Assembly: GCA_016182095.1 (NCBI GenBank)
Contig: JACOXY010000011.1
Span: 3,794 to 67,793 of the forward strand
Direction: 5' to 3'
DNA from: Candidatus Liptonbacteria bacterium
GTDB taxonomy: Bacteria > Patescibacteriota > Minisyncoccia > UBA6257 > JACOXY01
DNA length: 64,000 nucleotides
Of the stretch, positions 14,704 to 59,856 are shown piece after piece. Position 1 is the stretch's first letter, and every line of letters starts with the position of its first letter. A program made the translations under genes and the position numbers. The notes under the pieces were generated by a model. The model saw only the letters and a program-made list of their open reading frames with translations, had not been told where the DNA came from and ran no database searches.

Positions 14704-14714
14704 AGTATATAAAA

Positions 14715-19225: not shown

Positions 19226-19254
19226 GGGAGAGCGGCGCCATTCCGGTTACGCGG

Positions 19255-28940: not shown

Positions 28941-31192
28941 TGTTTGCTAAAACTTTTATCTAAATTTCTAAATGCTTTTAAAAGGCCCTCTGTGTCCTCT
29001 TTATAGCTCCAGTCGGAAATAATTTCCTTTGATTTACCTTTCATTGATTCCAGAAGTTGTTCGTTATCTATAATTTTCTTAATATAGTGAGCTAATGCCT
29101 CAATGTCGCCCAGGCGATAGACAAAACCATTTTCGCCTTGCCTTACTAAATCCACCTGCGCCCCAATAGTGTGGGGAGCAATAACCGGCAAGCCGCAAGC
29201 CATGGCTTCATTCACAGTCGCGCCCCAATCGCCTTTTATATAATCGTCGGTTCTCACAAAAATATCAGTGATAGCATAGAGCTTTATTAATTCTCTTTGG
29301 TTTTTAAAACCTAAAAATTTTACGTTCGACAGACCTTTCTTCGCTACTTCTTTTTCAAGCGGTCCTTTTAGCTCTCCGTCGCCTATCATTAGTAAGCAAG
29401 TATCAGTAATTGAGTAATCAGAAATTAGTAATTCGTACGCCTTGATTACATGCTCGGGGTGCTTGTCATGCACAAAACGCGCCGCATAAGTTATAACTTT
29501 GGCTTTTGGGTCTATGCCAAGCTCACGCTTGATTTCATCGCGGCTATTTTCATATTTTTTTGATTCTTCCATAAAAAATTCGTTCCAAACGGCATAAGGA
29601 AAATGAAATATGCGCTCTTTAGGCGCGCCAAACTCAAGGTACATTTCACGATTCCAGGTACCAATCGCCAAAAAACCGGAAACAAATCCACGGAAAATAA
29701 TTTTTAAATATAGTCGTTTAAGCAATAAAAGAAATTTTGAACGCATTACATGCTTGTCATAATTAGAAGAATTTACAACTCGCAAAAATATCGGTGTTAA
29801 AGTAATTTTTGCGGATAAAAGCGTAAGCCAGGAAGTTATGTCCATCCAACCCAAAACAATCACGGCATCGTACCTGTTTTTCAGTAACTTCCAAAAAATA
29901 CCCGGATTAAATAATCCCCAAATTGAAGGCCTGGGTTTTGGCGCGTAATTTCGCAAAAATTTTAATTTATAGCCTACAAGTAGCGGAATATCCCATTTGT
30001 AAGCGATGCTGAAAAAATCTTTATGTAATTGCGGCTTGGAAACTCCCCAGTCAACACAATAATAAACAGTTATGTCTATTCGCTGATTCTTCGCAATTTC
30101 ACGCCATAGGGGAGATTGATATTGAATAGGATGAGTCGCGACTACCGCCAACTTATATTTTTTTGGCGCTAACTGGAGCGCAAATTCTTCGGCTACTTCA
30201 GGAAGCGTTTTGTCTGTTTTAATCTCCAAAAAATTCTTCGCTTTCATTCCCCATCTACGGTACTCCTCAAGCTGACGGCCGATCTCTTCCGGAGTATGCT
30301 CTTGTCTTCTTTCATAAATTTCCGATGCGTCATTTGAAAGCAAGATCGCCAAGTCGGGTTTTGGCATAAAGAAAAAAGCTGCCTTAAAAAACCATAATGG
30401 AATTCCGTATTTTGTCTTCGGCCTCGGATCAACAAGGTGACTATAATAATATCTTTCGCCAATCACCGTTTTCCCTTTGGTTAAAAGCGGGCGAATCACA
30501 AACCAGTATCCCAAAAAGTGGTCTAGTGCATGATATAAAAATCTGAAAAATCCAGGGATCCGCGATTCGCCCGGGGGTTGCTTATTTTTGCCAAAAGAAA
30601 ACATCCCCTGCTTGGTTGGTAGGATCTTTGGCCGAAACCCAAGGTGCGCGTGCCACACAGGCACATGGAAAGCTTCCAGAATTTTTGCCGCCAGCTCTGC
30701 GGTTGCCGATTTGCCGACTCCATCGGGACCCAGCACAACCACAAAATTGCCCGGCGGGGAAAGAAGCCGTGAGGGATAAGAAAGGATATTCTTAAGCGTG
30801 CTTTTTGGCTTTTTTTCGTAAAGCATTTCGGGAATATGGTATATTTCTTTTTCATTTTTTTCCCGTTTAGCGAGCAACGCTCCCGGATTTTTCACAGGAT
30901 TAGTGAAGTCCAATCTCAAGAAAACCAGCTCATTCCCGACAAATGTGTAGAGCACCATGTATAATCCGCCAATATTTTGCCGCTCGTAAACTTTAAATCC
31001 ATTATCTAGTGCGCACTCGCCGACAAAATCGCGAACCATCCTTTCGTCTCTTTTTTCTATAACTATGTCTATATCGTTTCCTATATTTTCCGGTATGAGT
31101 TCCGCCTTCCTTAAAACTGCGTAATTTATTCCACGCTTATTTAGCCCATCAAAAAAAGAAGTGAGTATTTTAGCAACTAATGGATGAGTCAT
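28937..31192 (-). CDS. tri-domain fusion: nucleotidyltransferase-like N-domain + Tmk-like P-loop kinase + GT4 glycosyltransferase
   Basis: N-terminus NIGNDIDIVIEKRD (minimal nucleotidyltransferase fold); middle VVLGPDGVGKSATAELAAKIL (dTMP-kinase-like GxDGxGKS); C-terminus ...YAITDIFVRTDDYIKGDWGATVNEAMACGLPVIA (GT1). Confidence 0.6.
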   Translation of the reverse strand: MTHPLVAKILTSFFDGLNKRGINYAVLRKAELIPENIGNDIDIVIEKRDERMVRDFVGECALDNGFKVYERQNIGGLYMVLYTFVGNELVFLRLDFTNPVKNPGALLAKREKNEKEIYHIPEMLYEKKPKSTLKNILSYPSRLLSPPGNFVVVLGPDGVGKSATAELAAKILEAFHVPVWHAHLGFRPKILPTKQGMFSFGKNKQPPGESRIPGFFRFLYHALDHFLGYWFVIRPLLTKGKTVIGERYYYSHLVDPRPKTKYGIPLWFFKAAFFFMPKPDLAILLSNDASEIYERRQEHTPEEIGRQLEEYRRWGMKAKNFLEIKTDKTLPEVAEEFALQLAPKKYKLAVVATHPIQYQSPLWREIAKNQRIDITVYYCVDWGVSKPQLHKDFFSIAYKWDIPLLVGYKLKFLRNYAPKPRPSIWGLFNPGIFWKLLKNRYDAVIVLGWMDITSWLTLLSAKITLTPIFLRVVNSSNYDKHVMRSKFLLLLKRLYLKIIFRGFVSGFLAIGTWNREMYLEFGAPKERIFHFPYAVWNEFFMEESKKYENSRDEIKRELGIDPKAKVITYAARFVHDKHPEHVIKAYELLISDYSITDTCLLMIGDGELKGPLEKEVAKKGLSNVKFLGFKNQRELIKLYAITDIFVRTDDYIKGDWGATVNEAMACGLPVIAPHTIGAQVDLVRQGENGFVYRLGDIEALAHYIKKIIDNEQLLESMKGKSKEIISDWSYKEDTEGLLKAFRNLDKSFSKQ

Positions 31193-34358: not shown

Positions 34359-35921
34359 ATGATAAATTCTCAAAATATCAAGCCTTTTTTTATTTTTTCT
34401 GCAATAACAATAATTGCCGTGTCGTTTTTAATAGCGGGTTTTAATGTGTACCCTCCTCCATCCGGGAACTCCTCGCTCTTTGTTCCGCCGGCAATAAATT
34501 TAGCCGCAGGCAACGGCCTAATAGACGATCTAAGCCACATACGCCTAAACCAAACTAAGGACGCTCGATTTATTTCTTATCCGCCATTGTATCCGGTTCT
34601 TTTAAGTATATTGATGCCAAGGACGGATTCCATTGGCGCCTTTGTCGCAATCGCGGTAATGGAAATTTTAATCATAAGCTTCACGGCCTTAATTCTCTAC
34701 AAAATCCTAAGAACCACCGGGGATAACGGGGAAATTTCCTGGTTTAATATTTTAATAATAATTTTTAGTATTTTTGCTATTGCGGGCCCCCTATTAAATT
34801 ACAACGGCACCAGACCTGAAATTGTTTTCCAGCTAATCTCGGTGGCATGGATAATGTCTGTGATATATTTAACGCGCCACAAAAATTTATGGATGTTATT
34901 GGGAATAATTATTGGGGCTGGTTTGGCCACACATCCCTTGCACGGTTTTTATTTTTCAATTTTATCCGCATTGCTTTTTTCCTATGTCACGAATACTAAA
35001 TCGGCGATTAATAACATCCTGAGGGCGGGCGTACTGGGTGTTTTAGTTTTCTTGTTAATTTTAGCTCTCTCTCCACATGGCGCGCTTGATTATCTAAACG
35101 GAATGCGCGACATGGCATTTAGATATGCGAGCACCATGATATTTTGGACCGGATCGTCGCCCCTCACTGGTTTCGAGAGTCCGCTAAACACATACGGACA
35201 AGATTTGCTGCGTTATCTGGTGTTGAGTCCGGCAAGCTTTTTCTGGGGGCCATTTGTATTATTTGTTTTGATTTTAGCGGCGAAAAACTACAAAAGGTTA
35301 AATTCGGGTATAAAATCTCCCCATTTATTCTATTTGTTTTTATTCGTTTTTTTAGCAGTGATGAGCGGCATTATTTTTCTGGGGCATGCTGACAGTATTT
35401 ATTATTTGACCATGCTTGGTTCAATATTCGTAGTAATTGCATCTTATTTAGTATCGAAAGAGAAAGTTTTCGGTCGCGTAGTTTTATTTATGCTTCTGGC
35501 TACCATGAGCATTAGCTCTCTAAGGGTCTTTGTTTTAATGCCATTTTATTTTTTGGACGGAGTCAGAATCAGTGAGGCGAGGAATATTATTGAAAACTTA
35601 AATTTGCCGGATTGCGATGATTGCGTCGGAATATCACCGGCAAACCTATGGGTACTTTCGGAAAATTATCCTTCAATAATAACCGAGCTTCAGGCGGAGC
35701 GAACAGGAGAAAATTTGGGGAAGACAGCCAAAATAATACTTTTGGGACAGCACGGTTCGAGTCTCATGGAGCCCCCAAAAGAAATAAAGGGATGCCAAAT
35801 AGAAAAAGATTACTTTGCTAAAGAAAAACCTCCAAGCTTTTTTGGCATCAAAATAGCCAATATTATCCCCGGCCATGGTTTTGCCGTCTATGAGTGTGAG
35901 ATACAAACAAAATCAATTTAG
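34359..35921 (+). CDS. polytopic membrane protein with C-terminal soluble domain, paralog 2 of 19908..21491
   Basis: N-terminal block NVYPPPSGNSSLFVPPAINLAAGNGLIDDLS aligns with paralog 1; more than 10 hydrophobic helices. Confidence 0.45.
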   Translation: MINSQNIKPFFIFSAITIIAVSFLIAGFNVYPPPSGNSSLFVPPAINLAAGNGLIDDLSHIRLNQTKDARFISYPPLYPVLLSILMPRTDSIGAFVAIAVMEILIISFTALILYKILRTTGDNGEISWFNILIIIFSIFAIAGPLLNYNGTRPEIVFQLISVAWIMSVIYLTRHKNLWMLLGIIIGAGLATHPLHGFYFSILSALLFSYVTNTKSAINNILRAGVLGVLVFLLILALSPHGALDYLNGMRDMAFRYASTMIFWTGSSPLTGFESPLNTYGQDLLRYLVLSPASFFWGPFVLFVLILAAKNYKRLNSGIKSPHLFYLFLFVFLAVMSGIIFLGHADSIYYLTMLGSIFVVIASYLVSKEKVFGRVVLFMLLATMSISSLRVFVLMPFYFLDGVRISEARNIIENLNLPDCDDCVGISPANLWVLSENYPSIITELQAERTGENLGKTAKIILLGQHGSSLMEPPKEIKGCQIEKDYFAKEKPPSFFGIKIANIIPGHGFAVYECEIQTKSI

Positions 35922-36195: not shown

Positions 36196-37365
36196 CTAAA
36201 TTAAGGAGTAGAGTATACCGAGCTCACCCTCGTTTAATTCCGAAGTGTTGCCAAAGTAGAAGCCGTTTTGATGAACAAAGCGGGCATTGGGACAGTCGCC
36301 ATGCGAATTGATATACTTCTTATAAAACGGCTGTGAGGTAATATCTCCTGATACAATGGGCCGAATTTCAACTCCGTTTTCGGTAAATTTATTTTTATAA
36401 CTTTCAAATGTGGTTTTGTCTTTACAAATTATGGGCATAGCAAAAGCCGAGACTGTATCCATGTGATCAACCGAAAGCGCGAGTAGGTCGTTATTTTCTT
36501 TTTTCTTTTTGTTGAAAAATTTGAAATTTTTCTCTCTGGACGCGACAACTTCATCCCAATATTGAATCTGTAAATTACCTAAAAAGCCGTTAATTTCCGT
36601 AGGGCGCACATTGTACCCCAAATCAAAAAAGGAGTAGAGCGCGTAAAAAGGATCTGTGCCATGCTCCTTATGTAAAGCTTCGAGTTTTTCTTTCGGGAGA
36701 TTTCTTCCCCAGCCATGCGCGCGAACTTTTAAGAGCATGTGGTAAAGCTCTTCGTCATCAGTACATACCATACCTCCCTCAAGCGTTGAAAGATGATGGC
36801 CAAGAAAAAAAGAAAAGGTCGAGGCAAGGCCAAAATTACCAAGCAGTCTGCCATAAGCTTTTGAGCCTAGTGATTCACAATTGTCTTCCAGAAAAACAAT
36901 TTCGCGCTCCTCACATAAACTCCTTATTTCTTTTATATCATGGCAAAAACCAAGCGCGTTAGTAAGAAAAAGGCCACGGATTTCCTTAAGATAGGGTTCC
37001 AGTTTAGAGCTTGAAACATTTAGTGATTCTTTTTCGCAATCAATCGCCACCGGCACAAGTCCCAACTGCAGAAGGGGCATGACATTGGTAGACCACGTTA
37101 TAGCCGAAACTCCGACTTTATCGCCCCTCTTCAATTTGCCTAAATTTAAAAGCGCCTGAACAAGAATAAGGTTGGCCGATGAGCCGCTGTTTACAAATAC
37201 TGCGAACTTTCTTTCTTGTTTTTTGGCGAAAGCTTCCTCATATTTTTTGCATTCTTCCCCCATGCTGAAAAACTCTGTCCGCATTACAAAATCCGCGAGC
37301 TTCCTCCGAGTCTCATTTTCATCCATAAATGCCGATTTTATTAGTTTTATTTTAAAATTGTTCAT
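36196..37365 (-). CDS. DegT-family PLP enzyme with His in place of the catalytic Lys: probable nucleotide-sugar 3-dehydratase (ColD/E1-like)
   Basis: STFSFFLGHHLSTLEGG occupies the position where aminotransferases have SF(Y)xxK. His-for-Lys is the established signature of ColD and E1 3-dehydratases. It is translationally coupled to gmd. Confidence 0.55.
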   Translation of the reverse strand: MNNFKIKLIKSAFMDENETRRKLADFVMRTEFFSMGEECKKYEEAFAKKQERKFAVFVNSGSSANLILVQALLNLGKLKRGDKVGVSAITWSTNVMPLLQLGLVPVAIDCEKESLNVSSSKLEPYLKEIRGLFLTNALGFCHDIKEIRSLCEEREIVFLEDNCESLGSKAYGRLLGNFGLASTFSFFLGHHLSTLEGGMVCTDDEELYHMLLKVRAHGWGRNLPKEKLEALHKEHGTDPFYALYSFFDLGYNVRPTEINGFLGNLQIQYWDEVVASREKNFKFFNKKKKENNDLLALSVDHMDTVSAFAMPIICKDKTTFESYKNKFTENGVEIRPIVSGDITSQPFYKKYINSHGDCPNARFVHQNGFYFGNTSELNEGELGILYSLI

Positions 37366-38432
37366 GCGAAGTTTTCTCTTTTTACACCCACAGCTTTCAA
37401 ATCATGCTCCAGCATTATTTTTACAAGTTCTTCAAAGCTAGTCTTGGGGTGCCATCCTAGTTTTTGTCTGGCTTTGGTAGCATCCCCGACAAGATTTTCA
37501 ACGTCTGCCGGGCGATGATAGTAGGCATCAATAGCGATAACAGTTTTCCCCGTTTTTACATTTACCCCCCTCTCGTCCATGCCCTCGCCTTCCCATATCA
37601 AATTAATCCCTAAATATTTACAGCACGCTTCGACAAATTCTTTTACGGAGCGGCTCTTGCCCGTAGCTATAACATAATCATCCGATTCTTTCTCTTGGAG
37701 CATGCGCCACATAACTTCAACGTAATCTTTAGCATATCCCCAATCTCTTTTGGCGTACAAGTTACCAAGATATAATTTATCGGCTTTCCCAGCCATAATA
37801 TTCGCCAAACTCATTGTTATTTTTCGCGAAACAAAATTTTCTCCTCGCCTTGGCGACTCATGATTAAAAAGAATGCCGTTAGTCGCGAAAAGGTTATATG
37901 CTTCGCGATAATTCACAGCCGCGTAGTATGCAAAAACCTTAGCCACTCCGTAGGGACTGCGTGGATGAAAAACAGTTTTCTCGTTTTGCGGAGGAGGAGC
38001 GGAACCGAACATTTCGGAGCTTGATGCCTGGTAAAATTTTGTTCCGGGGCTATCGTGACGTATAGCATCCAAAAACCTAATCGTGGAAAGTCCGGTTGCG
38101 TCACTCGTAAACTCTGGGGTTTCAAAACTAATCCCCACGTGGCTTTGGGCCCCGAGATGGTAAACCTCGTCCGGTTTTAAAGAATTAACAAGGTGCCTGA
38201 TCGAGCTTGAGTCCGTTATATCTCCATAATGCAAGATGATCGGCTGATTCACGCTTACCTTACCTTTGGTGCGGTCCAGAACCAGATGCTCGATGCGACC
38301 TCTGTTAAAAGTGCTGGCCCGCCTCACCAAACCGTGCACTTCATAGCCCTTCTCCAGCAAAAATTCTGCCAGATAAGATCCGTCTTGTCCGGTTATGCCC
38401 GTTATAAGCGCTAATTTTTTATTCCTCGACAT
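37362..38432 (-). CDS. gmd: GDP-mannose 4,6-dehydratase
   Basis: ALITGITGQDGSYLAEFLLEKGYEVHGLVRRASTFNRGRIEHL is a near-canonical Gmd N-terminus, and the full-length SDR has the Gmd C-terminal extension. Confidence 0.8.
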   Translation of the reverse strand: MSRNKKLALITGITGQDGSYLAEFLLEKGYEVHGLVRRASTFNRGRIEHLVLDRTKGKVSVNQPIILHYGDITDSSSIRHLVNSLKPDEVYHLGAQSHVGISFETPEFTSDATGLSTIRFLDAIRHDSPGTKFYQASSSEMFGSAPPPQNEKTVFHPRSPYGVAKVFAYYAAVNYREAYNLFATNGILFNHESPRRGENFVSRKITMSLANIMAGKADKLYLGNLYAKRDWGYAKDYVEVMWRMLQEKESDDYVIATGKSRSVKEFVEACCKYLGINLIWEGEGMDERGVNVKTGKTVIAIDAYYHRPADVENLVGDATKARQKLGWHPKTSFEELVKIMLEHDLKAVGVKRENFA

Positions 38433-38441
38433 ATTTAAATT

Positions 38442-39422
38442 TTACACATTGTTATTTTGAAGATTTTCCAGATCCGCATCAACCATCATTTTTAGCAGAC
38501 TCTTAAAATCAGTTTGAGGAACCCACCCTGTAACTTGCTTAATCTTGGTAATATCCGCGCGCCACTCAAAAGCCTCGGCTGGGCGCACGAATTTTTCATC
38601 TACTACAACATACTTCTTCCAATCCAATCCGACAAATCCGAATACCGCGTCCAGAACTTCCCTCACCGCATGCGTCTCTCCAGTACCAATAACATAATCA
38701 CCGGGCTTATCCTGATTAAGGATTAACTGCATCGCTTCAACATAATCGCCGGCGAAACCCCAATCCCTTTTTACATTAAGATTCCCAAGGCGCAACTCTT
38801 TTTGCATCCCCATTTTTATTTTTGCCGCCGCCAGAGTAATTTTTCTTGGCAAAAATTCCACATCAACATACGGCGAAATATGGTTAAAGATTATCCCGGT
38901 ACAAGCAAAAATTTTATGCACCTCGCGATACATTTTTGCTAAATTAAGTCCAGCTGCTTTTGAAATTCCGTAGGGACTCGTAGAATTAATTGGGGTCTCT
39001 TCGTTTTGGGGAGAAGTTTTAGCATTGCCAAAAATCTCGCTGGTGCTGGCAAAGAAAAACTTGGCATCGGGTTTTAGCTCTTTAACAGCCGAGAGGAGAT
39101 AGTGAGTGCCATTGGTATTGCATTTCAGCGTGCCAAATTCATCTTCAAACGATGGACCAATGCCAGCGATGGCCGCTAAGTGATAGACTTCATCCGGTTG
39201 TGCCTTCGCAATCAACTTACACATTGTGGGGTAATCAGCAACATCGCCCCTGTGAAGTTTTATGCTGTCTAAAACATGGCTTACCTTGTGAAGACGCGGA
39301 TTAGACTTATCAGACGCAGTCCCTCTAATCAAACCATGCACTTCATATCCTTTACCCAAGAGAAGTTTCGCCAAATACGGACCGTCTTGCCCGGCAACGC
39401 CTGTTATTAGGGCTTTTTTCAT
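38442..39422 (-). CDS. Gmd-family NDP-sugar 4,6-dehydratase/reductase paralog
   Basis: ALITGVAGQDGPYLAKLLLGKGYEVHGLIRGTAS... is Gmd-like, but the sequence is divergent. It could be a heptose-specific dehydratase (DmhA-like) or an Rmd-like reductase. Confidence 0.65.
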   Translation of the reverse strand: MKKALITGVAGQDGPYLAKLLLGKGYEVHGLIRGTASDKSNPRLHKVSHVLDSIKLHRGDVADYPTMCKLIAKAQPDEVYHLAAIAGIGPSFEDEFGTLKCNTNGTHYLLSAVKELKPDAKFFFASTSEIFGNAKTSPQNEETPINSTSPYGISKAAGLNLAKMYREVHKIFACTGIIFNHISPYVDVEFLPRKITLAAAKIKMGMQKELRLGNLNVKRDWGFAGDYVEAMQLILNQDKPGDYVIGTGETHAVREVLDAVFGFVGLDWKKYVVVDEKFVRPAEAFEWRADITKIKQVTGWVPQTDFKSLLKMMVDADLENLQNNNV

Positions 39423-39483
39423 GAAGTTATAATATCATTCGCTTAAGGGAGTGACAAGAGCGCATTAAAAAAGTGCCCCCATT

Positions 39484-40216
39484 TTAGGGGCACCCCAACT
39501 TTTCTTGAAATTTTTTCTTCAAAAAAAGTGGCAATTTATTAGGATCTCCTGCATATCCAAACATTTCAGAGAATTCCAGGCTCAACTTTCTGCCAAGAGC
39601 TCTCTGCACTTCAAACATAGATTTTCCGCCATATTTGTTTTGGTAGGCAGCGCTGAAGAATTTATATCTGCGAGCTCTTTCTGGATCCACCTTGGTGCCG
39701 TCCCAGCCCCGCTCTAAATTATCAAAACGTTCGTCAATAGGAACGGGTTCGGTGTTGGTAAGCATAATATCGACATAAAGAATGATCTTCTCCGCAAGAA
39801 CGGTCGGCCCCTCTGCTCTATTAGGAATATTTGCTCCTGTGAGATTTACTATGTCGCTCGGAATTCCCATCTCGAGTAGGATATTGGCGTCTTTTGCCTT
39901 CAACTCATCCAGGAGTTCGAGAGAAAAAGAACCGTCGTTAATTGCTCGACGCAACGCTAAAGATTCATGCTTCTTAAACCAATCATGCAAAATAAGCGCC
40001 CTGACAATGGAATGTCGTTCATGGTGTGACAGGCCTGCCATTTCGGCCAAAATATCTCCAAACACTCCAGCAACAAGACAATGCTCCGAGACATTTCGCC
40101 AAATCCCCCCCCTTTCCCAAAGTTTCCCCCTTCTTAAAGTGGGGACGAAAGGCGCTAAGATATTTTAACGCGAATCTAGAAAAATAAGCTGTTTTCCCTT
40201 GCTCACCCAGAGTCAT
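39484..40216 (-). pseudogene. HD-domain phosphohydrolase (YfbR-like) split by a frameshift at a G8 homopolymer (C8 on the plus strand, 40105..40112)
   Basis: ORF 40216..40019 (MTLGEQGKTAYFSRFALKYL...) and ORF 40065..39484 (...NVSEHCLVAGVFGDILAEMAGLSHHERHSIVRALILHD...) overlap. The second frame continues upstream through the tract. G9 or G6 would give one 244 aa HD protein. Confidence 0.55.
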
Positions 40217-40399: not shown

Positions 40400-41284
40400 A
40401 TGAACTCTAAAACTATGCTTTTCGGGGGGAGCGGTCTTTTGGGCCCAGTTATTTTAGAGAGGTATCCGGAAATTATCTCGGTGGGGAGAAGCGCGCCCCC
40501 AAATCACATAAAAAACCGGCACATTAACATAAAAGATTTGGACGATTTAAGCGCTTTGGACTCACTTGACTTCGATAAAGTAATTTTCTTAATAGGAAAT
40601 TCCAATCACCATCTCATTAATGCGGAAGCGGCCATGGGAATTGATTTTAACGTTACACCACTTAAAAAAGCTCTGTTTTATTTTCAAAAAAGAAATATTA
40701 AAAAATTGATTTGCTTTTCGACTATCCTACTTTATGACGCGGAAAAAATTAAACCACCGGTAGACGAAAGCCAACCCACCAATCCTTTTGCGAATGACTA
40801 TATCTTTAGCAAGTATTTAGCAGAAGAAGTTGCAAATTTCTATAAAAACAAGGTGCCAATCATTACTATACGATTAAGCAACATTTATGGCCCAACAAAG
40901 CTAACGCGTCCCGATCTTATACCAACCTTAATCCAAGGTCTTCTATCAAAGGATGAGATAACCGTGTGGAGCAAAAAACCCGTGCGTGATTTCCTTTATC
41001 TACCCGACGCGGCCAGCGCAATCGTAAAACTTTTGGATACCGATTACACAGGAGTGGTTAATTTGGGAACCGGGAACTCCATAAGCGTCGGGGAGATTGC
41101 GGATATTTTAGAAAAGATTTCCGGCAAAAAAATTACCGATCTTAATAAAGAAGTGTCCGGTCCGATGAATTTACGCTGTGATATTTCACTTTTAAAAAAA
41201 TTAACCGGCTGGGAACCGGAACACACTACGGAAGAGGGTTTGCGCCTAACTTATAATCAGATGAAAGAGTGGGGCGTTAAATAA
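40400..41284 (+). CDS. NAD(P)-dependent epimerase/dehydratase-family (SDR) protein
   Basis: MLFGGSGLLG Rossmann motif, ...Y..SK... catalytic region, about 290 aa. Confidence 0.55.
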   Translation: MNSKTMLFGGSGLLGPVILERYPEIISVGRSAPPNHIKNRHINIKDLDDLSALDSLDFDKVIFLIGNSNHHLINAEAAMGIDFNVTPLKKALFYFQKRNIKKLICFSTILLYDAEKIKPPVDESQPTNPFANDYIFSKYLAEEVANFYKNKVPIITIRLSNIYGPTKLTRPDLIPTLIQGLLSKDEITVWSKKPVRDFLYLPDAASAIVKLLDTDYTGVVNLGTGNSISVGEIADILEKISGKKITDLNKEVSGPMNLRCDISLLKKLTGWEPEHTTEEGLRLTYNQMKEWGVK

Positions 41285-41290
41285 AATTCT

Positions 41291-42040
41291 ATGGATAATG
41301 CCCGCATCACAATTGTAATGCCAGTCTTTAATGAGGGGATAAACCTTGATATAATGCTTCGCATAATTGAAGCGATTGTTAAAAGCACTCACGAAGTTCT
41401 TGTTGTCTATGACTTTCCGGAAGACGACAGCATCCCGGTTGCCAAAGAAGTCCAAAAAGATCATTCCAACATACGGCTAGTATATAATGACATTGGACGA
41501 GGAGCAATAAATGCCATTAAAAAGGGGGTGTTGGAAGCCAAAGGAAAATATGCGGTAACTTTAATGGCTGACGATATCGGTCCCGTATTCGCCCTGGACG
41601 CTATGGCTGATCTAATGGATATGGATTGCGGAATAGTTGGCTGCACCAGATACGCTTATGGAGGAAAAGTTTTTGGCGGATCCTTGAAACAAAAAATTCT
41701 TTCCAGAGCAGCCAATTCTATATTCAGGATTGTGACTTCATCCCAACTTACCGATGCGACATTCGGACCAAAAATGTTCAAGCCCGAACTGTTCCAAAAA
41801 ATAAACATTGAATCAACCCGAGGGTGGGCAATATCTTTCGAGCTATCGATTAAAATCCAAGCAATGGGATTTCGCGTAGGTGAAGTGCCGATAACTTCTA
41901 TCAACCGGTTTTATGGCGGACAGGCAACTTTTTCACTGGGCTCATGGCTTGGAGATTATTTAAAGTGGTTCTTCACAGGAATAAAACTTTTAAGGGGCAA
42001 GGGCTTGCCGCCCCCCCTGCACAAGCGCGCCTTTGAGTAA
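41291..42040 (+). CDS. GT2-family glycosyltransferase (DPM1-like)
   Basis: ITIVMPVFNEGINL...VVYDFPEDDS...GAINAIKKG. Confidence 0.7.
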   Translation: MDNARITIVMPVFNEGINLDIMLRIIEAIVKSTHEVLVVYDFPEDDSIPVAKEVQKDHSNIRLVYNDIGRGAINAIKKGVLEAKGKYAVTLMADDIGPVFALDAMADLMDMDCGIVGCTRYAYGGKVFGGSLKQKILSRAANSIFRIVTSSQLTDATFGPKMFKPELFQKINIESTRGWAISFELSIKIQAMGFRVGEVPITSINRFYGGQATFSLGSWLGDYLKWFFTGIKLLRGKGLPPPLHKRAFE

Positions 42041-43255
42041 ATAAAAAGTATATAAGTAAGCCGCGATAGCGATAACAATAATAAAAATTTGCAGGGTGGC
42101 TGCATAATCCCATCCGGCTAATCGCAGGACAAACGGTAGCCAAGCTAAAGACATATGGATAGCAGACAATTTTATCAGCAAATTCCTGTTAATTTTTAAA
42201 AATTCTCGCATCAGAAATGGCACTGTTAAAATAAAGGCCGATGCGGCATAGCCAATAAATCTTTCGGCGCTTGGAGTCACAAAAATACTTATAAGGTAAG
42301 AGCTCGCGCCATAGGCTACGGTAACAATAAACCAAAATGGAAGCCTGCGGAATATTTCTTGGAAGTTGCGCCGAATTAGATAAAAAATTACTACCGGCAT
42401 TATTCCTAAAAGGGTGAGCAGGGCAACGAAAGTCGCGAGCATCGCTTCGGGCATAAATCCGCACGAACCGACCCGCTCGATAGAACCAAGCGGTAGCCAC
42501 GAAGGCAGAGCAAAATTATAAATTGGATCGCAATTAGCTAAAGTATTCGACCATAAGCTGATTCCTAATACATTATTAAAAAAGTAATAAGGTATCTTGA
42601 GGGCAAAATATAAAAAACTTTGAAGGTTGTGCGCGTTAGGAATGCCTAAGCTATTTATTTGTCCAGTCACAAAAATGGAAATAGCAATTATAAAAAAAGT
42701 TCCCAGGGCCAGCATCCTCTTCCCTTTGTATATACTTAGACATAAGAAAATTAGGCCGAAGAGAATGATTGATTCGCGGGTTAAAAACATAAAAAAAAGC
42801 GTCAGTAACGCCGGAATCTCCTGGTTGTAAAAAAGAAAAACAAAAAATAAAGTCGATGAAAAAAGAAAGAAAGCATCCGGCAAAAGATACTCGCTCGATA
42901 TCCCCGCAAAGTACGGCATAAAAAGAAGCGGGGCAAGCATGAGGGAAAACGGCAAAATTTTTTTAAGAACAACCGCCAAACACAAAAAAAGCAAATATAG
43001 GGCGGCGATCGTTATGAAAAGGAATGAATGCTCCGCGTCTATACCGAATATGTAATGCGCCATGCCTGCCAAAAAGGGAAAAAAAATCCTGCCCGAAAAC
43101 GGCTGAATCACATCCTGAATATCGCCTTGAAAAATTTTGAGATACCACTCAACATCTCCTCCATAAATCGGATTGAGCGGCCAGTTTAAAGCGACAATCA
43201 AAGTTGCCAAAAACAAAGCCGCAAGAAAAAAGTTTAAACTTTTTGAAGAAGTCAT
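41990..43255 (-). CDS. polytopic membrane protein (12+ helices), third member of the YGGD-motif family; candidate polymerase/GT-C
   Basis: N-terminus LNPIYGGDVEWY resembles GGDSAYY in 19908..21491. It lacks the C-terminal soluble domain and overlaps the convergent GT2 gene by 50 bp. Confidence 0.45.
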   Translation of the reverse strand: MTSSKSLNFFLAALFLATLIVALNWPLNPIYGGDVEWYLKIFQGDIQDVIQPFSGRIFFPFLAGMAHYIFGIDAEHSFLFITIAALYLLFLCLAVVLKKILPFSLMLAPLLFMPYFAGISSEYLLPDAFFLFSSTLFFVFLFYNQEIPALLTLFFMFLTRESIILFGLIFLCLSIYKGKRMLALGTFFIIAISIFVTGQINSLGIPNAHNLQSFLYFALKIPYYFFNNVLGISLWSNTLANCDPIYNFALPSWLPLGSIERVGSCGFMPEAMLATFVALLTLLGIMPVVIFYLIRRNFQEIFRRLPFWFIVTVAYGASSYLISIFVTPSAERFIGYAASAFILTVPFLMREFLKINRNLLIKLSAIHMSLAWLPFVLRLAGWDYAATLQIFIIVIAIAAYLYTFYLLKGALVQGGRQALAP

Positions 43256-44320: not shown

Positions 44321-45259
44321 TCAGATTAAACCCTCGGCTTTTAAAAGCATCTCCAACCCTCCTCTTAAAGTAACTTTCGGCCGCCAGTCCAAATCCTGCA
44401 TAATTTTGTTGTCGTCCCCCACCAAGCGGTTACGCTCAAGGTCTCCCCGCGAACGGCTCTCTTCGGAGATAAATTCTACTTCTCTTCCGGCATTCTTTAA
44501 AAGATCTTTTATAATATCGGTAACTTCTTGGATGGAATTCACGGCATTAGCGCCAACATTATAAATAGCCCCCGGCGTGCCGCGCGCGAGAAGTAGCGCG
44601 AGAACGTCCGCAACTTCCGTAACATAGATAAAGTCCCTTTCAGGAAAAAGATTGCCGAGTTTTATGCTATTAACGCCCGATTTCAACTGCGAAACAATTT
44701 CCGGAATTACCTGGGGAATTCCGGCAAATGGCCCATAAATACTAAATGGCCGCAAAATAAAATAAGTCATCCCATTTTTTTCACACTCTTCCCGCGCCGC
44801 CCCCTCTCCTTCTAACTTGCTTTTGCCATAAACTTCAAAGGGTTCGGTGGGGTGGGTTTCTTTTATGGGCTCGTCCGATGGCCTGTATACGGAAGAGGTT
44901 GAGATATGTATAAATCGCGGCTTGTCTTGAAGTCTAGCGGCGGCATGAATAACGTTTTTCGCTCCGAGAACGTTAACGGCAAATGCCTTTTGGGGATCTC
45001 TGTTGCAGTCCGGTATAAAGTGAAGCGCGGCCAAAAAATAAACGGCGCCCGGCTTAATCTCATCTGTAAAGTTTTTTACCGCCTCCATATCGCGCACATC
45101 TCCCCGCTTAATCACTATCTTATCTTTCATGTCCTCTAAGTTAGACATTCTGCCGGTTGAAAAATCATCAAAAACCGCCACCGAATGTCCTTCATTTAAT
45201 AATTTCCTTGCAAGATTATTTCCCACAAAACCAGCGCCGCCGAAGAGTAAGGTCGTCAT
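44321..45259 (-). CDS. NAD-dependent NDP-sugar epimerase/reductase (SDR)
   Basis: MTTLLFGGAGFVGNNLARKLL...YGKSK... are classic extended-SDR motifs. Confidence 0.7.
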   Translation of the reverse strand: MTTLLFGGAGFVGNNLARKLLNEGHSVAVFDDFSTGRMSNLEDMKDKIVIKRGDVRDMEAVKNFTDEIKPGAVYFLAALHFIPDCNRDPQKAFAVNVLGAKNVIHAAARLQDKPRFIHISTSSVYRPSDEPIKETHPTEPFEVYGKSKLEGEGAAREECEKNGMTYFILRPFSIYGPFAGIPQVIPEIVSQLKSGVNSIKLGNLFPERDFIYVTEVADVLALLLARGTPGAIYNVGANAVNSIQEVTDIIKDLLKNAGREVEFISEESRSRGDLERNRLVGDDNKIMQDLDWRPKVTLRGGLEMLLKAEGLI

Positions 45260-45445: not shown

Positions 45446-46171
45446 TTATGAAAAAAATTCGTGAGCGGAAGCATAGCGCTCCGGTGTGCCGATATCCAAG
45501 AATTTTCCGTCAAATATAAATCCAGTAGCCCTCCCGGCCAACCTGGGAAAAACGTCTCGTTCTAAAGAAAACTTTTCGTTGTCGGGAAAATACTTTGCAA
45601 TTTTTTTGTTCATAACATAACAGCCGGCATTTACAAAACTATCCGTCTTCTCCTTATTTTTCTCCGCAAAGGCAGTCATTTCTCCGCTCCGCGCCAATGT
45701 CACGTTTCCACAATCGGCTCTCCCGTTTTTTTCTGCAAGTGCCAGAGAAAGGGGGGGCTGTTTTTTTAGATAATTTTCATAAAACTTTTGAAAATCTAAT
45801 TTAGGAAACGTATCACCATTTATGACAAAAAAGTGCTTGCTTTTTACGCAGGGCAAGGCAAGCTTCACCGCCCCCCCTGTATCCAGGGGCGACTCTTCCT
45901 TAGAAAAAACAAATTCGGCCTCTTGCGCATAGCGGCTTTTTTTAAAATATCTCTCTATGTGCTCCCCCATGTGTCCAGTGCAAAAGATAATCCGGCGAAA
46001 GCCCTGCCGCAGGAGTTCCTTCACCACAAGCGCGAGAAACGGCTTTTTGCCTAATTCCGCCATTGGTTTTGGTCGATCTGAAATAACCGGCCGGAGCCGA
46101 GTGCCTAATCCGCCGCACAAAATCAAAATATCAATGTTATTAAGCAAGTTGAGGGTGCTTTTTCTGCTCAT
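45446..46171 (-). CDS. sugar-1-phosphate nucleotidyltransferase (HddC/ManC-like)
   Basis: ILCGGLGTRLRPV...KPM is the canonical NTP_transferase loop. It lies adjacent to a GHMP kinase and contains two intact G/C7 homopolymer tracts. Confidence 0.7.
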   Translation of the reverse strand: MSRKSTLNLLNNIDILILCGGLGTRLRPVISDRPKPMAELGKKPFLALVVKELLRQGFRRIIFCTGHMGEHIERYFKKSRYAQEAEFVFSKEESPLDTGGAVKLALPCVKSKHFFVINGDTFPKLDFQKFYENYLKKQPPLSLALAEKNGRADCGNVTLARSGEMTAFAEKNKEKTDSFVNAGCYVMNKKIAKYFPDNEKFSLERDVFPRLAGRATGFIFDGKFLDIGTPERYASAHEFFS

Positions 46172-47233: not shown

Positions 47234-47269
47234 TAAAAAACCCCGAACCAATGTTCGGGGCGCTTTTTT
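47234..47269. terminator. bidirectional intrinsic terminator
   Basis: Stem ccccgaac/gttcgggg with a 4 nt loop, flanked by an A-run upstream and a T-run downstream. Confidence 0.55.
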
Positions 47270-52829: not shown

Positions 52830-52915
52830 TAATTCCCTTATCAAAATTGCGCTTCAGGCGCAATTTTTTGTTCTTGACCTTAGCGAATAAAAAAGTTAGG
52901 ATACGAACGTACATT

Positions 52916-53422: not shown

Positions 53423-53477
53423 CGAAATAAGTAAAGTTTGTTATATTCCGTGTAGCATACAGTATTGGGAGGGAGAA

Positions 53478-56673: not shown

Positions 56674-57612
56674 TTACGCAAAGTTTGTGTGTTCCGTATG
56701 GCGGATAATTTGATATCCCTTAACAAGTTCTTTAATGCCGCTCTGAAGAGAGTGGGCGGGCTTAAATCCGGTAGCTTCTATTTTTGCGTTTGAAACTATA
56801 TAATTCCTCTTGTCCGGATCCTCCCCTATTTCCGCTTCCAAATATACGAAGTTCGGCACGAATTTCTTTATTTCTTCGCAAAGCTCTACCTTACTTAGAT
56901 TGGCGTCGGAGAGCCCCAAATTATACGCCTGGTTTTTCATTCTATCGAAATTCTCCATACAGTGAATAAACCCGCGGACAACATCGCGGATATGTATAAA
57001 ATTGCGCTTAAAATGAGATTCAAAGAGAACAATACTGCCGTCTTTCATGGCGCGATGCACAAAGTCATTTACCAATAAATCAAGCCTCATCCTGTGGCTC
57101 ATCCCAAAAACTGTGGCGAGTCTTAACGTAATTGCGTTGCCGGATTCCAATATGGCTTTTTCCGCTTCTACCTTCAGGCGCCCATACAGAGAAATGGGGT
57201 TCAAAAAAGAATTTTCATCGCAAAAGACGGCTTTACTGCCGACACCATAGCCGCTATTGGTATTCGGGAAAATTATTCTTTGCTCCGGCTTTCGGAACTC
57301 AAGAATCATTCTAATGGCATCAAGATTGGTGGTAGTAGCCGCGACAGGATCGCGGTTGCAGGCAGGCATCCCCACGATACAAGCAAGCGGGATTATATAA
57401 TCTTTATCCGCGATATATTTTGCAACTAAGTCCTCGCTCCTTGCGTCCCCTCGAACCACAGTCAGTTTTTCATCGTAGGCGCAATCGGCAAGCGATGTCT
57501 GGCCATACATAAAGTTATCAATAACAGTTACTATATGCCCGCGGCGCAGGAGCTCCGGCACAAGCATTGACCCAATATACCCGGCTCCGCCGGTTACAAG
57601 AATTTTTGACAT
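56674..57612 (-). CDS. NAD-dependent NDP-sugar epimerase/dehydratase (SDR)
   Basis: ILVTGGAGYIGSMLVPELL...YGRLK... Confidence 0.7.
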   Translation of the reverse strand: MSKILVTGGAGYIGSMLVPELLRRGHIVTVIDNFMYGQTSLADCAYDEKLTVVRGDARSEDLVAKYIADKDYIIPLACIVGMPACNRDPVAATTTNLDAIRMILEFRKPEQRIIFPNTNSGYGVGSKAVFCDENSFLNPISLYGRLKVEAEKAILESGNAITLRLATVFGMSHRMRLDLLVNDFVHRAMKDGSIVLFESHFKRNFIHIRDVVRGFIHCMENFDRMKNQAYNLGLSDANLSKVELCEEIKKFVPNFVYLEAEIGEDPDKRNYIVSNAKIEATGFKPAHSLQSGIKELVKGYQIIRHTEHTNFA

Positions 57613-57669: not shown

Positions 57670-58653
57670 TTAGGCTTCTTTTATCTTATTTCTCCAAAAT
57701 TCCAGAAGATAAAGCACGCTCTCCTCAAAAGAATACCTCGGTCGCCAACCGGTAGCATTTATAAATTTAGTAATGTCGGGAATCTGCAAAGTGACATCCG
57801 CGGGGCGCAAAAGAGCCGGATCAATCCGTGAGGGAATTTGAACAGTGGCTTTATTTTTTAGAACATCCAAAAAATCTCCGATTTTAATAACGGTAGGCCC
57901 TCCGATATTATAGGCTTCTCCAAATTCACATTTTTCGGCAGCTACCCAATACGACTCCATGGCGTCACGAACATCGATGAGCGTCCTCACTGAATCTAAA
58001 TTGCCATGCAAAAGCTCTTTTTGTTTGCCGGCCTCAATTAAAGCGACCTGCTTCGCCCATGAAGTCGCGAAAAGATCTTCACGCCTTGGATTCAGATACG
58101 CGAACATGCGTGTTCTCACAACTTTCATGCCGTAGGCCCTGAAATAGGTAAATCCCAAAAAGTCTCCGGCAACTTTTGAAACTGCGTATGGATTTGAGGG
58201 AATAATCGGGCAGTCTTCTTTAATGGGAACGTTTTTAGGATCTACCTGGCCATAAACTTCGCTGGTGGAACAAATTTGGATAACCGGATCGATTTCGGCC
58301 GAGCGCACAGCTTCAAATAAATTGGCGGTGCTCATGATGTTGTTCTGCATCATGGAAAGCGGTGTAAGCCAAGCAGCCCTGACGTTAGCATAAGCAGCCA
58401 AATGAAAAATAACGTCGGGCTTCACTTCTTTTAAGACCCGCAAAATGGAACTAAAATCGTTTAAGTCGCATTCGTAAATTTTTATCTTGTCTTTCAGGTG
58501 GGCGACATTGCTGTTTACGCTGGTGCTGTGCCAACGGGAAACACCGCTCACTTGAACGCCGGGGCAGTGGAGAACGATATAATCGGCCAGGTAACTGCCC
58601 CCGGAGCCGGTTATGCCTGTAATAAGAGCTTTTTTGAATATTCTTTTCTCCAT
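57670..58653 (-). CDS. Gmd/Rmd-family NDP-sugar 4,6-dehydratase or 4-reductase
   Basis: ALITGITGSGGSYLADYIV...PYAVSKVAGD... is Gmd-like but shorter; it is adjacent to a ColD-like gene. Confidence 0.65.
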   Translation of the reverse strand: MEKRIFKKALITGITGSGGSYLADYIVLHCPGVQVSGVSRWHSTSVNSNVAHLKDKIKIYECDLNDFSSILRVLKEVKPDVIFHLAAYANVRAAWLTPLSMMQNNIMSTANLFEAVRSAEIDPVIQICSTSEVYGQVDPKNVPIKEDCPIIPSNPYAVSKVAGDFLGFTYFRAYGMKVVRTRMFAYLNPRREDLFATSWAKQVALIEAGKQKELLHGNLDSVRTLIDVRDAMESYWVAAEKCEFGEAYNIGGPTVIKIGDFLDVLKNKATVQIPSRIDPALLRPADVTLQIPDITKFINATGWRPRYSFEESVLYLLEFWRNKIKEA

Positions 58654-58656: not shown

Positions 58657-59856
58657 TTAACGCTTTACCGCGTCCAATACTACTTTTGAAATAAATTTTA
58701 CATCTTCGGTTTTAAGCGAAGGATGATTCGGCAAAAAGAAGCCACGATTATAAAGTTCGTCAGCCCACTTGAAATGCGCCTCGCCATACCGATTAGCCCA
58801 AAAGGGGTGAAGACCGAGATTCCCGGCCGTGTAGAGACGCGTTTCAATGCCATTTTTATGAAGAGCATCCGCCACAGTCTTTCTCTCTGCAGAATCGTTG
58901 GCCAAGGCGCAGAAATGAATACTGCATGGCACAATATCATTATCATATGACTGGGCATAAAACTTTTCACCCAGTAATTTTTTGTACAAGTGATGATTCC
59001 GGCTGCGCCGCTCCACAAGCCAATCCATTTTATCAAGTTGCCGCAAGCCCAAGAATGCCTGAAGGTCGGTTGCCCTTAAGTTGAGCCCGGGTTCATAAAA
59101 TATAAAGGGATTGTGGCTATTATCTACATTATATTTATTAAGCAGCGCCCCATGCGAATCTGGATCCAAATCCTTGCCCCAACCATGGCTTCTTGACATC
59201 AAAAGCAAATTATTAAATTCCTGATCGTCGGTCGAGACTACCCCCCCTTCAATTGTAGAAAGCTGATGCCCAAAGTAAAGCGAGAAGCTCGACATGTCGC
59301 CGAACGTTCCAGCTTTTCTCCCGCGATGCGACGCCCCCATGGCGGCACAGGCATCCTCCAAAAGAACAAATTTATATTTTTCTTTTAGAGCCAAAAGTTT
59401 ATCAATGTGCTTATGGGGAACGCCAAGAATTTGTACAAATATTACAGCTCCGGGGTCATGCTTTTTTAACAGCTCCTCCAAATAATCAACATCCAAAGCA
59501 AAGGTATCCTTATCCGCCTCGCACATGATTGGCTCAAACCCAAACTGGATTGCCGGAGTAATGGTTGTGGGCCATCCGGCAGAAGGAACAATTATTTTTT
59601 TGTTTTTAAGTTTAGACGATAATAAAAGAACATAATACATGAGGAGGTTAGCCGAAGAACCGGAGTTGCAAAACACGGAATATTTCTTTCCCCACCAGTT
59701 GCTCCATTTTTTTTCAAACTCCAAAGTTAACGGCCCCTTGGTAAGGCGGGAGTTAGTTTTAAGCCAGTCAATAAGAGCGCTTATATCCTTATCATCAATA
59801 GTGTCTTCCGCAAGATGATGTTTGATTTGCATAGTATAATTATTAGATAATACCAA
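58657..59856 (-). CDS. DegT-family PLP enzyme with His-for-Lys: probable nucleotide-sugar 3-dehydratase (ColD/E1-like), second copy
   Basis: SSFSLYFGHQLSTIEGG, with the N-terminus ...VFCNSGSSANL... Confidence 0.55.
   Translation of the reverse strand: MVLSNNYTMQIKHHLAEDTIDDKDISALIDWLKTNSRLTKGPLTLEFEKKWSNWWGKKYSVFCNSGSSANLLMYYVLLLSSKLKNKKIIVPSAGWPTTITPAIQFGFEPIMCEADKDTFALDVDYLEELLKKHDPGAVIFVQILGVPHKHIDKLLALKEKYKFVLLEDACAAMGASHRGRKAGTFGDMSSFSLYFGHQLSTIEGGVVSTDDQEFNNLLLMSRSHGWGKDLDPDSHGALLNKYNVDNSHNPFIFYEPGLNLRATDLQAFLGLRQLDKMDWLVERRSRNHHLYKKLLGEKFYAQSYDNDIVPCSIHFCALANDSAERKTVADALHKNGIETRLYTAGNLGLHPFWANRYGEAHFKWADELYNRGFFLPNHPSLKTEDVKFISKVVLDAVKR

Follow-up and report, generated by a model that had tools for sequence, protein, structure and literature searches.

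The stretch of DNA analysed here, referred to as the window, comprises 64 kb from Candidatus Liptonbacteria (Patescibacteria) and is as a whole a glycan-assembly locus of the cell-surface glycan type, with many glycosyltransferases of families GT1, GT2 and GT4 as well as carbamoyltransferases, methyltransferases and nucleotidyltransferases. The subject of this text is an operon on the minus strand of the window, which encodes in this order a divergent paralog of Gmd (the GDP-mannose 4,6-dehydratase; the paralog at 38442-39422), a canonical Gmd (37362-38432) and a DegT-family protein with a histidine in place of the Schiff-base lysine (36196-37365), together with a second DegT homolog of the same type in a different part of the window. 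A previous reading made from the letters alone (the sequence-only reading) had placed three open reading frames (ORFs) at these positions of the minus strand, and all three are present.

The operon and its two recognisable enzymes

The three ORFs form a tightly coupled operon, with the stop codon of the Gmd gene lying within the start of the DegT-family gene (ATGA overlap) and 9 nt separating the stop codon of the paralog gene from the ATG of the Gmd gene. Immediately 5' of the ATG of the paralog gene a promoter-like TTGTCA-17-TATTAT (39429..39457, minus strand) agrees with the consensus at 10 of 12 positions in a consensus scan, and TG precedes its second hexamer; the site is weak evidence for a promoter, and the number of such sites in the operon region does not exceed that in shuffled sequence. 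An ORF for 193 residues (39484-40065, minus strand) lies 61 nt upstream of the operon and encodes an HD-like LHD motif without any Pfam or NCBIfam match; its GTG start is uncertain as the frame is still open further upstream. This ORF was considered as a conserved fourth gene of the operon, since the tail of an ORF upstream of the paralog in a related locus (L009) looked alike, and was rejected when tblastn gave no match in L009 or in the related locus L001.

The second gene of the operon (37362..38432, minus strand, 356 residues) matches the Gmd model TIGR01472 with 520 bits, above the cutoff of 415, and PF16363 with 457 bits. It carries every Gmd motif, namely GxxGxxG, GXXRR (as VRR), T-S-E, YxxxK and NHESPRRG, and is 56% identical to MUR1. 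By family it is a bona fide GDP-mannose 4,6-dehydratase, as had been read from the sequence before.

The third gene (36196..37365, minus strand) encodes a protein of 389 residues, here called ColD-like-1, which matches PF01041 with 195 bits and has the GDP-4-keto-6-deoxy-D-mannose 3-dehydratase ColD of E. coli O55 (2gms) as its best solved relative (E 2e-69, 38% identity). The first histidine of its GHH motif, His190, aligns with His188 of ColD, a column that could be fixed with the PDB chains of the mutants H188N (3b8x), H188K (2r0t) and S187N/H188K (3gr9). In a MAFFT alignment this one column holds a histidine in ColD, in E1 (His220) and in both His-type proteins of the window, and a lysine in an ordinary DegT protein of the same window (25913-27016); the GHH motif itself contains no lysine. 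The sequence-only reading had taken the histidine to occupy the Schiff-base position and the protein to be of the 3-dehydratase type, and had proposed comparison with ColD and with the Fe-S ligands of E1; the alignment bears both claims out, as ColD is the closest relative and the four-cysteine Fe-S insertion of E1 (DCYCAPGCDNTC) is represented by a gap. There is no cysteine cluster in ColD-like-1, and the second His-type protein of the window (ColD-like-2, see below) likewise has no such insertion. Both proteins also score far below the cutoff of the RfbH/E1 model NF011936 (198 and 200 bits vs 423). Homologs of ColD-like-1 number thousands, and the counts given here cover the best 120. GHH is found in 112 of these and SHH or AHH in two more, none has a cysteine cluster, and all those with a source name derive from metagenome-assembled genomes of the Patescibacteria group.

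The group of 3-dehydratases is defined and subdivided by two features, the exchange of lysine for histidine and whether or not a [2Fe-2S] motif is present (PMC8987622). Lack of this motif sets ColD apart from E1 and SpnQ. Because the Fe-S cysteines of E1 are absent, ColD-like-1 is to be placed with ColD and not with E1, and it is best read as a ColD-type, Fe-S-free C3-dehydratase that depends on pyridoxamine 5'-phosphate (PMP) and would act on the product of Gmd. It adds a new member to a known family, and judged from family and motifs C3-deoxygenation of a GDP-4-keto sugar is a well-supported function for the operon.

A divergent paralog of Gmd

What is the role of the first gene? The paralog (38442..39422, minus strand, 326 residues) matches TIGR01472 with 317 bits, below the cutoff of 415, and its best solved relatives are GDP-mannose dehydratases (MUR1 298 bits, the P. 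aeruginosa GMD 294 bits). Its identity to solved GMDs amounts to 46-48%, as against 29% (108 bits) to the reductase Rmd (2pk3). The paralog thus belongs to the Gmd clade, as claimed before, and differs from a second ordinary Gmd by the loss of Gmd-defining motifs. Several motifs are retained, namely GxxGxxG, TSE, YGISK (YxxxK), the asparagine of FNH, RKIT, KRDWG and RPAE; the residues counted as GDP contacts follow the list in PMC9415975 and their motif-based mapping onto the paralog is inferred. At GXXRR the paralog has GLIRG, replacing the second arginine by glycine, AAIAGI replaces AAQSHV, and NHISPYVD stands for NHESPRRG, with valine in the column of Arg185 and isoleucine for the glutamate of NHES.

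Among the best 120 homologs of the paralog only the paralog itself and two others, P0122 (81% identity, L001) and P0123 (66%, L009), deviate in both GXXRR and NHESPRRG. These three form a clade with G-L-I/V-R-G for GXXRR and NHISP(Y/R)(V/I)D for NHESPRRG. When the three are compared with 122 canonical Gmds, 117 columns are conserved at 93% or more, of which 88 are kept by all three clade members and 13 are changed in all three. The 13 cluster in GXXRR, QSH and NHESPRRG and include R34G, Q85, S86, Y123F, P147S, E182I, R186V/I, G187D, V191L and T192P. Column Arg186 corresponds to Arg185 of P. aeruginosa, and the lost Arg34 to Arg36 of the RR loop (offset checked on the 1rpn chain). According to PMC3584063, which summarises King 2009 and Webb 2004, six features define Gmds, among them GXXRR, the RR loop and Arg185; the last is described as orienting GDP-mannose and NADP+ and as fundamental for the dehydratase reaction. 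The same text reports that the P. aeruginosa GMD, with 323 residues of the short type by our own classification, has a side activity reducing the 4-keto product. Rmd of A. thermoaerophilus has the same pattern as the paralog, without RR and with NHIGPGQ. Given the identities above, the paralog is nevertheless not a member of the Rmd family, and the resemblance is one of shared motif losses.

The clade evolves faster than canonical Gmds: its members share 42-49% identity with outgroup Gmds, whereas canonical short-type Gmds average 53-57%. Yet of the three operon genes it is the paralog that has changed least between the window and L001 (81% identity vs 77% and 71%). The clade is rare, three sequences having been found: among the matches listed from GTDB species genomes and JGI metagenome contigs there were only canonical Gmds with at most 55% identity to the paralog, and 75 of the 80 GTDB loci from the paralog scan, among the matches listed, carry FNHESPRRG. 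The order paralog then Gmd recurs in L001, where a ColD homolog comes next, and in L009, where a gene for a membrane protein follows.

Related loci and the absence of a ColC-like gene from the window

In all six other contexts of ColD-like-1 homologs that the analysis covered (L001, L003, L004/L005, L006, L007 and L008) a canonical Gmd gene is found at a distance of at most two genes from the homolog, adjoining it directly in five and separated from it by one gene in L004/L005, and these Gmds are 58-77% identical to the Gmd of the window. This arrangement is not chance. The intervening gene encodes a B12-binding radical S-adenosylmethionine (SAM) protein and is located at 6442-7938 in L004 and at 2962-4458 in L005.

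Beside the Gmd and ColD-like pair several of these loci encode a short-chain dehydrogenase/reductase (SDR) that matches the GDP-L-fucose synthase (Fcl) model, with 477 bits in L004, 443 in L008, 296 in L003 and, weakly, 166 in L007; the SDRs of L004 and L008 carry GSSCIYP with the epimerase cysteine. Since these Fcl-like SDRs adjoin the pair, the ColD-like-1 family is normally part of a colitose-type triad of Gmd, ColD and ColC. The window differs. None of its six SDRs is Fcl-like by the model NF047922 (best scores 35 and 27 bits) and by the cysteine of GSSC(I)YP, with no NF047922 match for the paralog or for the SDRs at 40400 and 44321, and no cupin epimerase of the RmlC type was detected among window ORFs of at least 110 residues. 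The label colitose-type given to the operon by the sequence-only reading is therefore not supported by these 64 kb, which contain neither an Fcl/ColC-like SDR nor a cupin epimerase, whereas related loci do carry an Fcl-like gene. As no Fcl-like SDR is present and an altered copy of Gmd seems to have taken the place of the last enzyme, the sugar made by the operon is probably not colitose.

Proposed pathway and alternatives

We propose that the operon is a three-enzyme module for GDP-hexose deoxygenation with the paralog as reductase, and that the second DegT protein acts on a GDP-heptose, a reading to which we assign a probability of roughly 0.55. In a first step Gmd would convert GDP-D-mannose to GDP-4-keto-6-deoxy-D-mannose. 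ColD-like-1, with its PMP regenerated from pyridoxal 5'-phosphate with L-glutamate, would then form a ketimine at C4, His190 would take the C4' proton and the 3-OH would be expelled, so that hydrolysis would yield GDP-4-keto-3,6-dideoxy-D-mannose. These first two activities, deduced from family and catalytic histidine, are highly probable. In the third step the paralog, in the place of the Fcl-like ColC, would use exchangeable NAD(P)H to reduce the ketone at C4, a step suggested by the loss of residues for dehydration and tight cofactor binding, that is the second arginine of GXXRR, the equivalent of Arg185, the glutamate of NHES and the serine of QSH. That the paralog is an NAD(P)H-dependent 4-ketoreductase replacing ColC has, by itself, not quite an even chance. 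Since there is no recognisable 5-epimerase, the product would stay in the D series, and a D-configured GDP-3,6-dideoxyhexose is the likeliest outcome. Should the hydride be delivered to the same face that loses it in the Gmd reaction, the D-arabino (tyvelose) configuration and not L-colitose would result. Finally, the sugar would be transferred by one of the numerous glycosyltransferases encoded in the locus.

Several points weigh against this proposal. The paralog keeps the full T-S-E/YxxxK signature of dehydratases, so a residual or altered dehydratase activity is possible, and its changes could equally reflect lost cofactor binding in a pseudoenzyme or in a structural partner of Gmd. In L009 the pair of paralog and Gmd occurs without an adjacent ColD, and given this locus the native substrate of the paralog may be a 3-hydroxy compound. 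ColD-like-1 shares only 38% identity with E. coli ColD and has Gly189 where ColD has Ser187, glycine being found in most homologs, too. Both S187N and H188K are required to convert ColD into an aminotransferase, and the glycine, a small residue and not asparagine, is a difference and not a contradiction. The reductase could be another SDR, encoded at 40400-41284, at 44321-45259 or outside the window, and since the window is a 64 kb part of a contig that is at least 134 kb long and belongs to a larger genome, a ColC-like gene may lie elsewhere in the genome. The stereochemistry of the product is a guess.

The strongest competitor of the proposed module is an ordinary colitose pathway with ColC encoded outside the window and the paralog as a redundant or differently specialised dehydratase. 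It would fit the orthologs of ColD-like-1 (59-69% identity) in triads of Gmd, ColD-like and Fcl-like genes in other Patescibacteria, the partial view of the contig, and the retained T-S-E and YxxxK of the paralog. However, the 64 kb are an otherwise self-contained glycan locus without an Fcl-like SDR, the operon position of the third enzyme is taken by the paralog in the window as well as in L001, and the paralog has no equivalent of Arg185, which is reported as required for dehydration, so that we regard this explanation as improbable though worth keeping in mind. Somewhat less probable still is that the paralog is dead or regulatory, a structural partner in a hetero-oligomer with Gmd, and that C4 is reduced by the SDR at 40400-41284 or 44321-45259. 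The changed residues do contact the cofactor and the neighbouring subunit (RR loop, QSH, Arg185), the pair of paralog and long-type Gmd is conserved in L009 even without ColD, and the nearby SDRs have intact GxxGxxG and YxxxK. On the other hand, GxxGxxG, the catalytic threonine, glutamate, tyrosine and lysine and all GDP contacts are kept in all three clade members together with 88 of the 117 Gmd-invariant columns, and the paralog is more conserved than its neighbours, a pattern typical of an active enzyme.

Two further explanations are unlikely. A heptose substrate for the first operon, as the sequence-only reading had envisaged, could draw on the GDP-heptose supply pathway encoded in the window and would have a parallel in C. 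jejuni, which uses a ColD homolog on a heptose, but the dehydratase of the operon exceeds the equivalog cutoff as a canonical Gmd, heptose dehydratases constitute a separate clade that includes the SDR at 57670-58653, and the Cj1427-like enzyme of the window is linked to the second DegT protein and not to ColD-like-1, leaving this idea with little weight. Least likely of all is an aminotransferase activity yielding a GDP-4-amino-4,6-dideoxy sugar of the perosamine type, as membership in the DegT family and solved perosamine synthases among the relatives (78 bits) might suggest, since the Schiff-base lysine is replaced by histidine in a motif devoid of lysine, the score of ColD is three times higher, and histidine for lysine marks 3-dehydratases (PMC8987622).

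A second His-type DegT protein in a probable heptose module

The sequence-only reading had also described a second pair of a Gmd-family and a DegT protein, which is real: ColD-like-2 (58657..59856, minus strand) carries the histidine of YFGHQ in the catalytic column, and an SDR of the Gmd/Rmd/DmhA group follows 3 nt downstream (57670..58653, minus strand). With the start annotated in the source ColD-like-2 has 391 residues (Met at ~59832). Its best solved match is ColD (E 6e-48), and with 31% identity to ColD and 30% to E1 it is about equidistant from both and 29% identical to ColD-like-1. YFGHQ is found in 117 of 120 homologs, there is no Fe-S cysteine motif, and family members of 65-79% identity occur in Patescibacteria, Nanoarchaeota, Elusimicrobia, Deltaproteobacteria and KSB1. 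The DmhA-like SDR matches best the GDP-heptose 4,6-dehydratase of C. jejuni (7us5, E 1e-60, 38% identity, vs 34.5% for Rmd 2pk3), though by a small margin in score (213 vs 201 bits); it shares TSE, YxxxK and PRR with DmhA and Gmd, whereas Rmd has PGQ. Further downstream (56674..57612, minus strand) a protein of 312 residues matches Cj1427 (PDB 6vo6/6vo8, E 6e-117, 393 bits), with a gapless alignment to 6vo6 over 310 residues. Cj1427 is the C4-dehydrogenase of GDP-heptose (PMC10680097). For this second pair, with its 7us5-like SDR and Cj1427 homolog, the suggestion of GDP-heptose substrates is thus supported, unlike for the first operon with its bona fide GDP-mannose dehydratase.

The operon of ColD-like-2 continues on the minus strand with a GT2 glycosyltransferase (55505-56662, PF00535 105 bits) and a GmhB-like heptose bisphosphate phosphatase (54900-55496, NF006506 132 bits, TIGR00213 120 bits). 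On the same strand the window encodes an HddA-like GHMP kinase (46140-47141, best NCBIfam match HddA with 134 bits, below the curated cutoff), an HddC-like guanylyltransferase (45446-46171, HddC 155 bits, likewise below the cutoff), an SDR as candidate 4-reductase (44321-45259), whose solved relatives include Rmd at 86-88 bits, a split transketolase-like enzyme dependent on thiamin diphosphate (ThDP; 47268-48194 and 48191-49084, Pfam and NCBIfam matches) and a fusion of GmhA with part of a nucleotide-sugar dehydrogenase (61319-62683, gmhA TIGR00441 198 bits vs a cutoff of 209). On the plus strand are a B12-binding radical SAM enzyme (49239-50753, Pfam and NCBIfam matches), a GmhB-like HAD phosphatase (59966-60538, NF006506 137 bits) and an FkbM methyltransferase (60535-61257). 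The GmhA-, HddA-, HddC- and GmhB-like genes have their best matches in these families, mostly below the curated cutoffs; the HddA- and HddC-like proteins would provide GDP-heptose. In the fusion protein GmhA is attached to the C-terminal end of an N-terminally truncated fragment of a nucleotide-sugar dehydrogenase, and the same fusion of 454 residues occurs on other contigs (L173).

Parts of this neighbourhood recur around ColD-like-2 homologs in three loci of different phyla (L010, L011 and L012). All three hold the Cj1427-like dehydrogenase (76, 63 and 54% identity) and the GHMP kinase (60-67%), and a nucleoside triphosphate transferase is also part of the recurring set. Orthologs of the transketolase adjoin the ColD-like-2 homologs in all three, and the B12-binding radical SAM protein (39-53% identity) in L011 and L012 only. 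Of the ColD-like-2 loci only the closest retains the DmhA-like dehydratase, which suggests that the natural substrate of the ColD-like-2 family may be the Cj1427-type product, giving 3-deoxyheptoses. ColD-like-2 would perform the same C3 chemistry as ColD-like-1 on GDP-heptose 4-keto intermediates from the DmhA-like dehydratase, the Cj1427-like dehydrogenase or both, so that the products would be 3,6-dideoxyheptoses, 3-deoxyheptoses or both. In L012, which derives from Elusimicrobia, a true E1-like protein (13714-15090, 55% identity to Yersinia E1) lies alongside the ColD-like-2 homolog, so that two types of 3-dehydratases coexist in one cluster.

By analogy to YerE and ErwE, which branch CDP-3,6-dideoxy-4-keto-glucose at C4 (PMC9306805), a branch at C4 of the 3-deoxy-4-keto sugar might be introduced by the ThDP enzyme, or this enzyme may do no more than provide sedoheptulose 7-phosphate. 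In L003 a split transketolase-like pair (11188-12907) follows the set of Gmd, ColD-like-1 and Fcl-like genes with no heptose genes in view, which favours modification of a 3-deoxy-4-keto sugar over supply of the precursor. An erwiniose-like octose formed through chain extension by the B12 radical SAM enzyme was considered and dropped, as erwiniose is explained instead by a ThDP-dependent reaction that adds a C4 keto acid to CDP-3,6-dideoxy-4-keto-glucose (PMC9306805); the general point that survives is that 3-deoxy-4-keto sugars serve as acceptors for ThDP-dependent branching. The neighbourhood of ColD-like-2 may encode a so far uncharacterised route to heptoses that are 3-deoxygenated, branched or methylated. 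If both modules are taken together, a Gmd duplicate would have become the terminal 4-ketoreductase for a GDP-3,6-dideoxyhexose such as GDP-tyvelose, and the ColD-like-2 cassette, conserved at 54-79% identity in Patescibacteria, Deltaproteobacteria and Elusimicrobia, would be a widespread natural route to 3-deoxy- or 3,6-dideoxyheptoses that are further branched or methylated, a combination that is doubtful and that we put forward tentatively.

Other genes of the locus

Divergently transcribed from the first operon is an SDR of 294 residues (40400..41284, plus strand, PF01370 76 bits) with GxxGxxG and YxxxK. It is not Fcl-like, lacking a match to NF047922 and having isoleucine at the position of the GFS cysteine, and is an alternative candidate for the 4-reductase. 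Three membrane proteins without family match, each with 8-10 hydrophobic segments, are encoded at 34359-35921 (plus strand), 41990-43255 (minus strand) and 19908-21491 (minus strand) and are likely polymerase-, flippase- or GT-C-type proteins of the glycan locus. A block on the plus strand (52050-54863) encodes a protein of the inositol-monophosphatase family, an adenylyltransferase resembling domain II of RfaE, a NUDIX protein and an AAA_33 kinase-like protein, which hints at a second, possibly ADP-linked, route of sugar activation; homologous NUDIX and inositol-phosphatase genes are present in L010. A class II aldolase, a protein of 716 residues with a phosphoribulokinase/uridine-kinase domain and a HAD phosphatase are encoded consecutively at 16195-19911 (minus strand), followed by two nucleotidyltransferase-like genes (13092-15536), and together these genes may belong to a further sugar-nucleotide pathway.

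Moreover, a GFO/IDH/MocA oxidoreductase is spread over two ORFs on the minus strand, one for the N-terminal Rossmann part and one for the C-terminal part (27133-27657 and 27715-28125). In L001, a syntenic locus, one gene encodes the whole protein, and the split could be due to a frameshift, a sequencing error or a pseudogene. A protein of 751 residues (28937-31192, minus strand) combines a thymidylate-kinase-like domain with a GT1 glycosyltransferase and has a counterpart of 762 residues in L001, and a gene of the 23S rRNA intervening-sequence protein family (PF05635; 32441-32818, minus strand) lies within the glycan locus.

Significance

Patescibacteria are ultrasmall organisms of reduced genome size, most of them attached to hosts. 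In such organisms a glycan locus that exceeds 64 kb and holds two separate modules for C3-deoxygenation suggests a central role for rare deoxy sugars at the cell surface. The core chemistry of Gmd and a ColD-type enzyme is ordinary and well understood, and this core is common in Patescibacteria metagenomes. We know of no description of a Gmd-derived protein with Rmd-like motif losses that replaces ColC, and to our knowledge no GDP-activated D-3,6-dideoxyhexose has been described, tyvelose being otherwise known only as CDP derivative. Literature searches for GDP-tyvelose, GDP-abequose and GDP-paratose found nothing, which is weak evidence as sugar names containing commas are poorly searchable, and a search for work linking colitose with Patescibacteria, itself a weak one, yielded nothing relevant among the papers listed. 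A reductase role of the paralog would make it a clean case of a dehydratase scaffold re-tooled by the loss of a few residues that orient cofactor and substrate, and would provide glycoengineering with a GDP-activated D-3,6-dideoxyhexose. As far as we know, in vitro work is so far the only source of 3-deoxyheptoses; the neighbourhood of ColD-like-2 points to a natural counterpart of the GDP-3-deoxyheptoses obtained by mixing C. jejuni enzymes, and it may indicate new tailoring of nucleotide heptoses by ThDP or B12 radical SAM enzymes.

Comparison with known systems

The operon resembles the colitose pathway of E. coli O55/O111 and Y. pseudotuberculosis (Gmd/ColB, ColD and ColC) in that Gmd is followed by a His-for-Lys, Fe-S-free DegT protein, in the GDP linkage and in the setting within a surface-glycan locus. 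It differs in having no ColC in the window and a degenerate Gmd paralog as third gene, in the distance of ColD-like-1 to ColD (38% identity, glycine for Ser187) and in the host, which is proteobacterial for the colitose pathway and belongs to the Patescibacteria here.

With the GDP-D-rhamnose pathway (Gmd and Rmd, or the bifunctional GMDs of P. aeruginosa and PBCV-1) the operon shares the pairing of Gmd with a second SDR of the same superfamily, which we propose to reduce, like Rmd, the C4 ketone without epimerisation. The paralog and Rmd have in common the absence of RR and of an equivalent of Arg185, and NHI for NHE. In contrast to the GDP-D-rhamnose pathway, a 3-dehydratase is inserted here and the paralog is of the Gmd clade (46-48% identity), not of the Rmd clade (29%), so that if it is a reductase it would have arisen independently of Rmd. 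E1 (RfbH/DdhC), the CDP-6-deoxy-L-threo-D-glycero-4-hexulose 3-dehydrase, is likewise a His-for-Lys DegT protein acting on a 4-keto-6-deoxy sugar nucleotide, from which it takes the 3-OH, but it has the four-cysteine [2Fe-2S] insertion and needs the reductase E3, and both window proteins are without the insertion.

The second module is most similar to the GDP-3,6-dideoxyheptose pathway of C. jejuni HS:5 and HS:11 and to Cj1427-dependent heptose modification, both known from the Raushel and Holden laboratories, with which it shares DmhA-like, ColD-like and Cj1427-like proteins and the GmhA-, HddA-, GmhB- and HddC-like genes nearby. The sequence-only reading was not aware of any description of 3,6-dideoxyheptoses; these sugars are in fact known together with their GDP-linked pathway, as the synthesis of GDP-3,6-dideoxyheptoses was reconstituted with the enzymes of C. 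jejuni HS:5 and HS:11, a ColD homolog among them (Ghosh, Xiang, Raushel 2023, PMC10440746). The C. jejuni ColD homologs are 62-67% identical to ColD, ColD-like-2 of the window 31%, and no cupin C5-epimerase was seen in the window. Furthermore, GDP-3-deoxyheptoses were made in vitro from Cj1427 and a C3-dehydratase (PMC10680097), a combination so far reported only in vitro, while in the window a Cj1427-like dehydrogenase and a C3-dehydratase are encoded in one operon and, unlike in C. jejuni, are linked to genes for a split transketolase-like enzyme and a B12 radical SAM enzyme.

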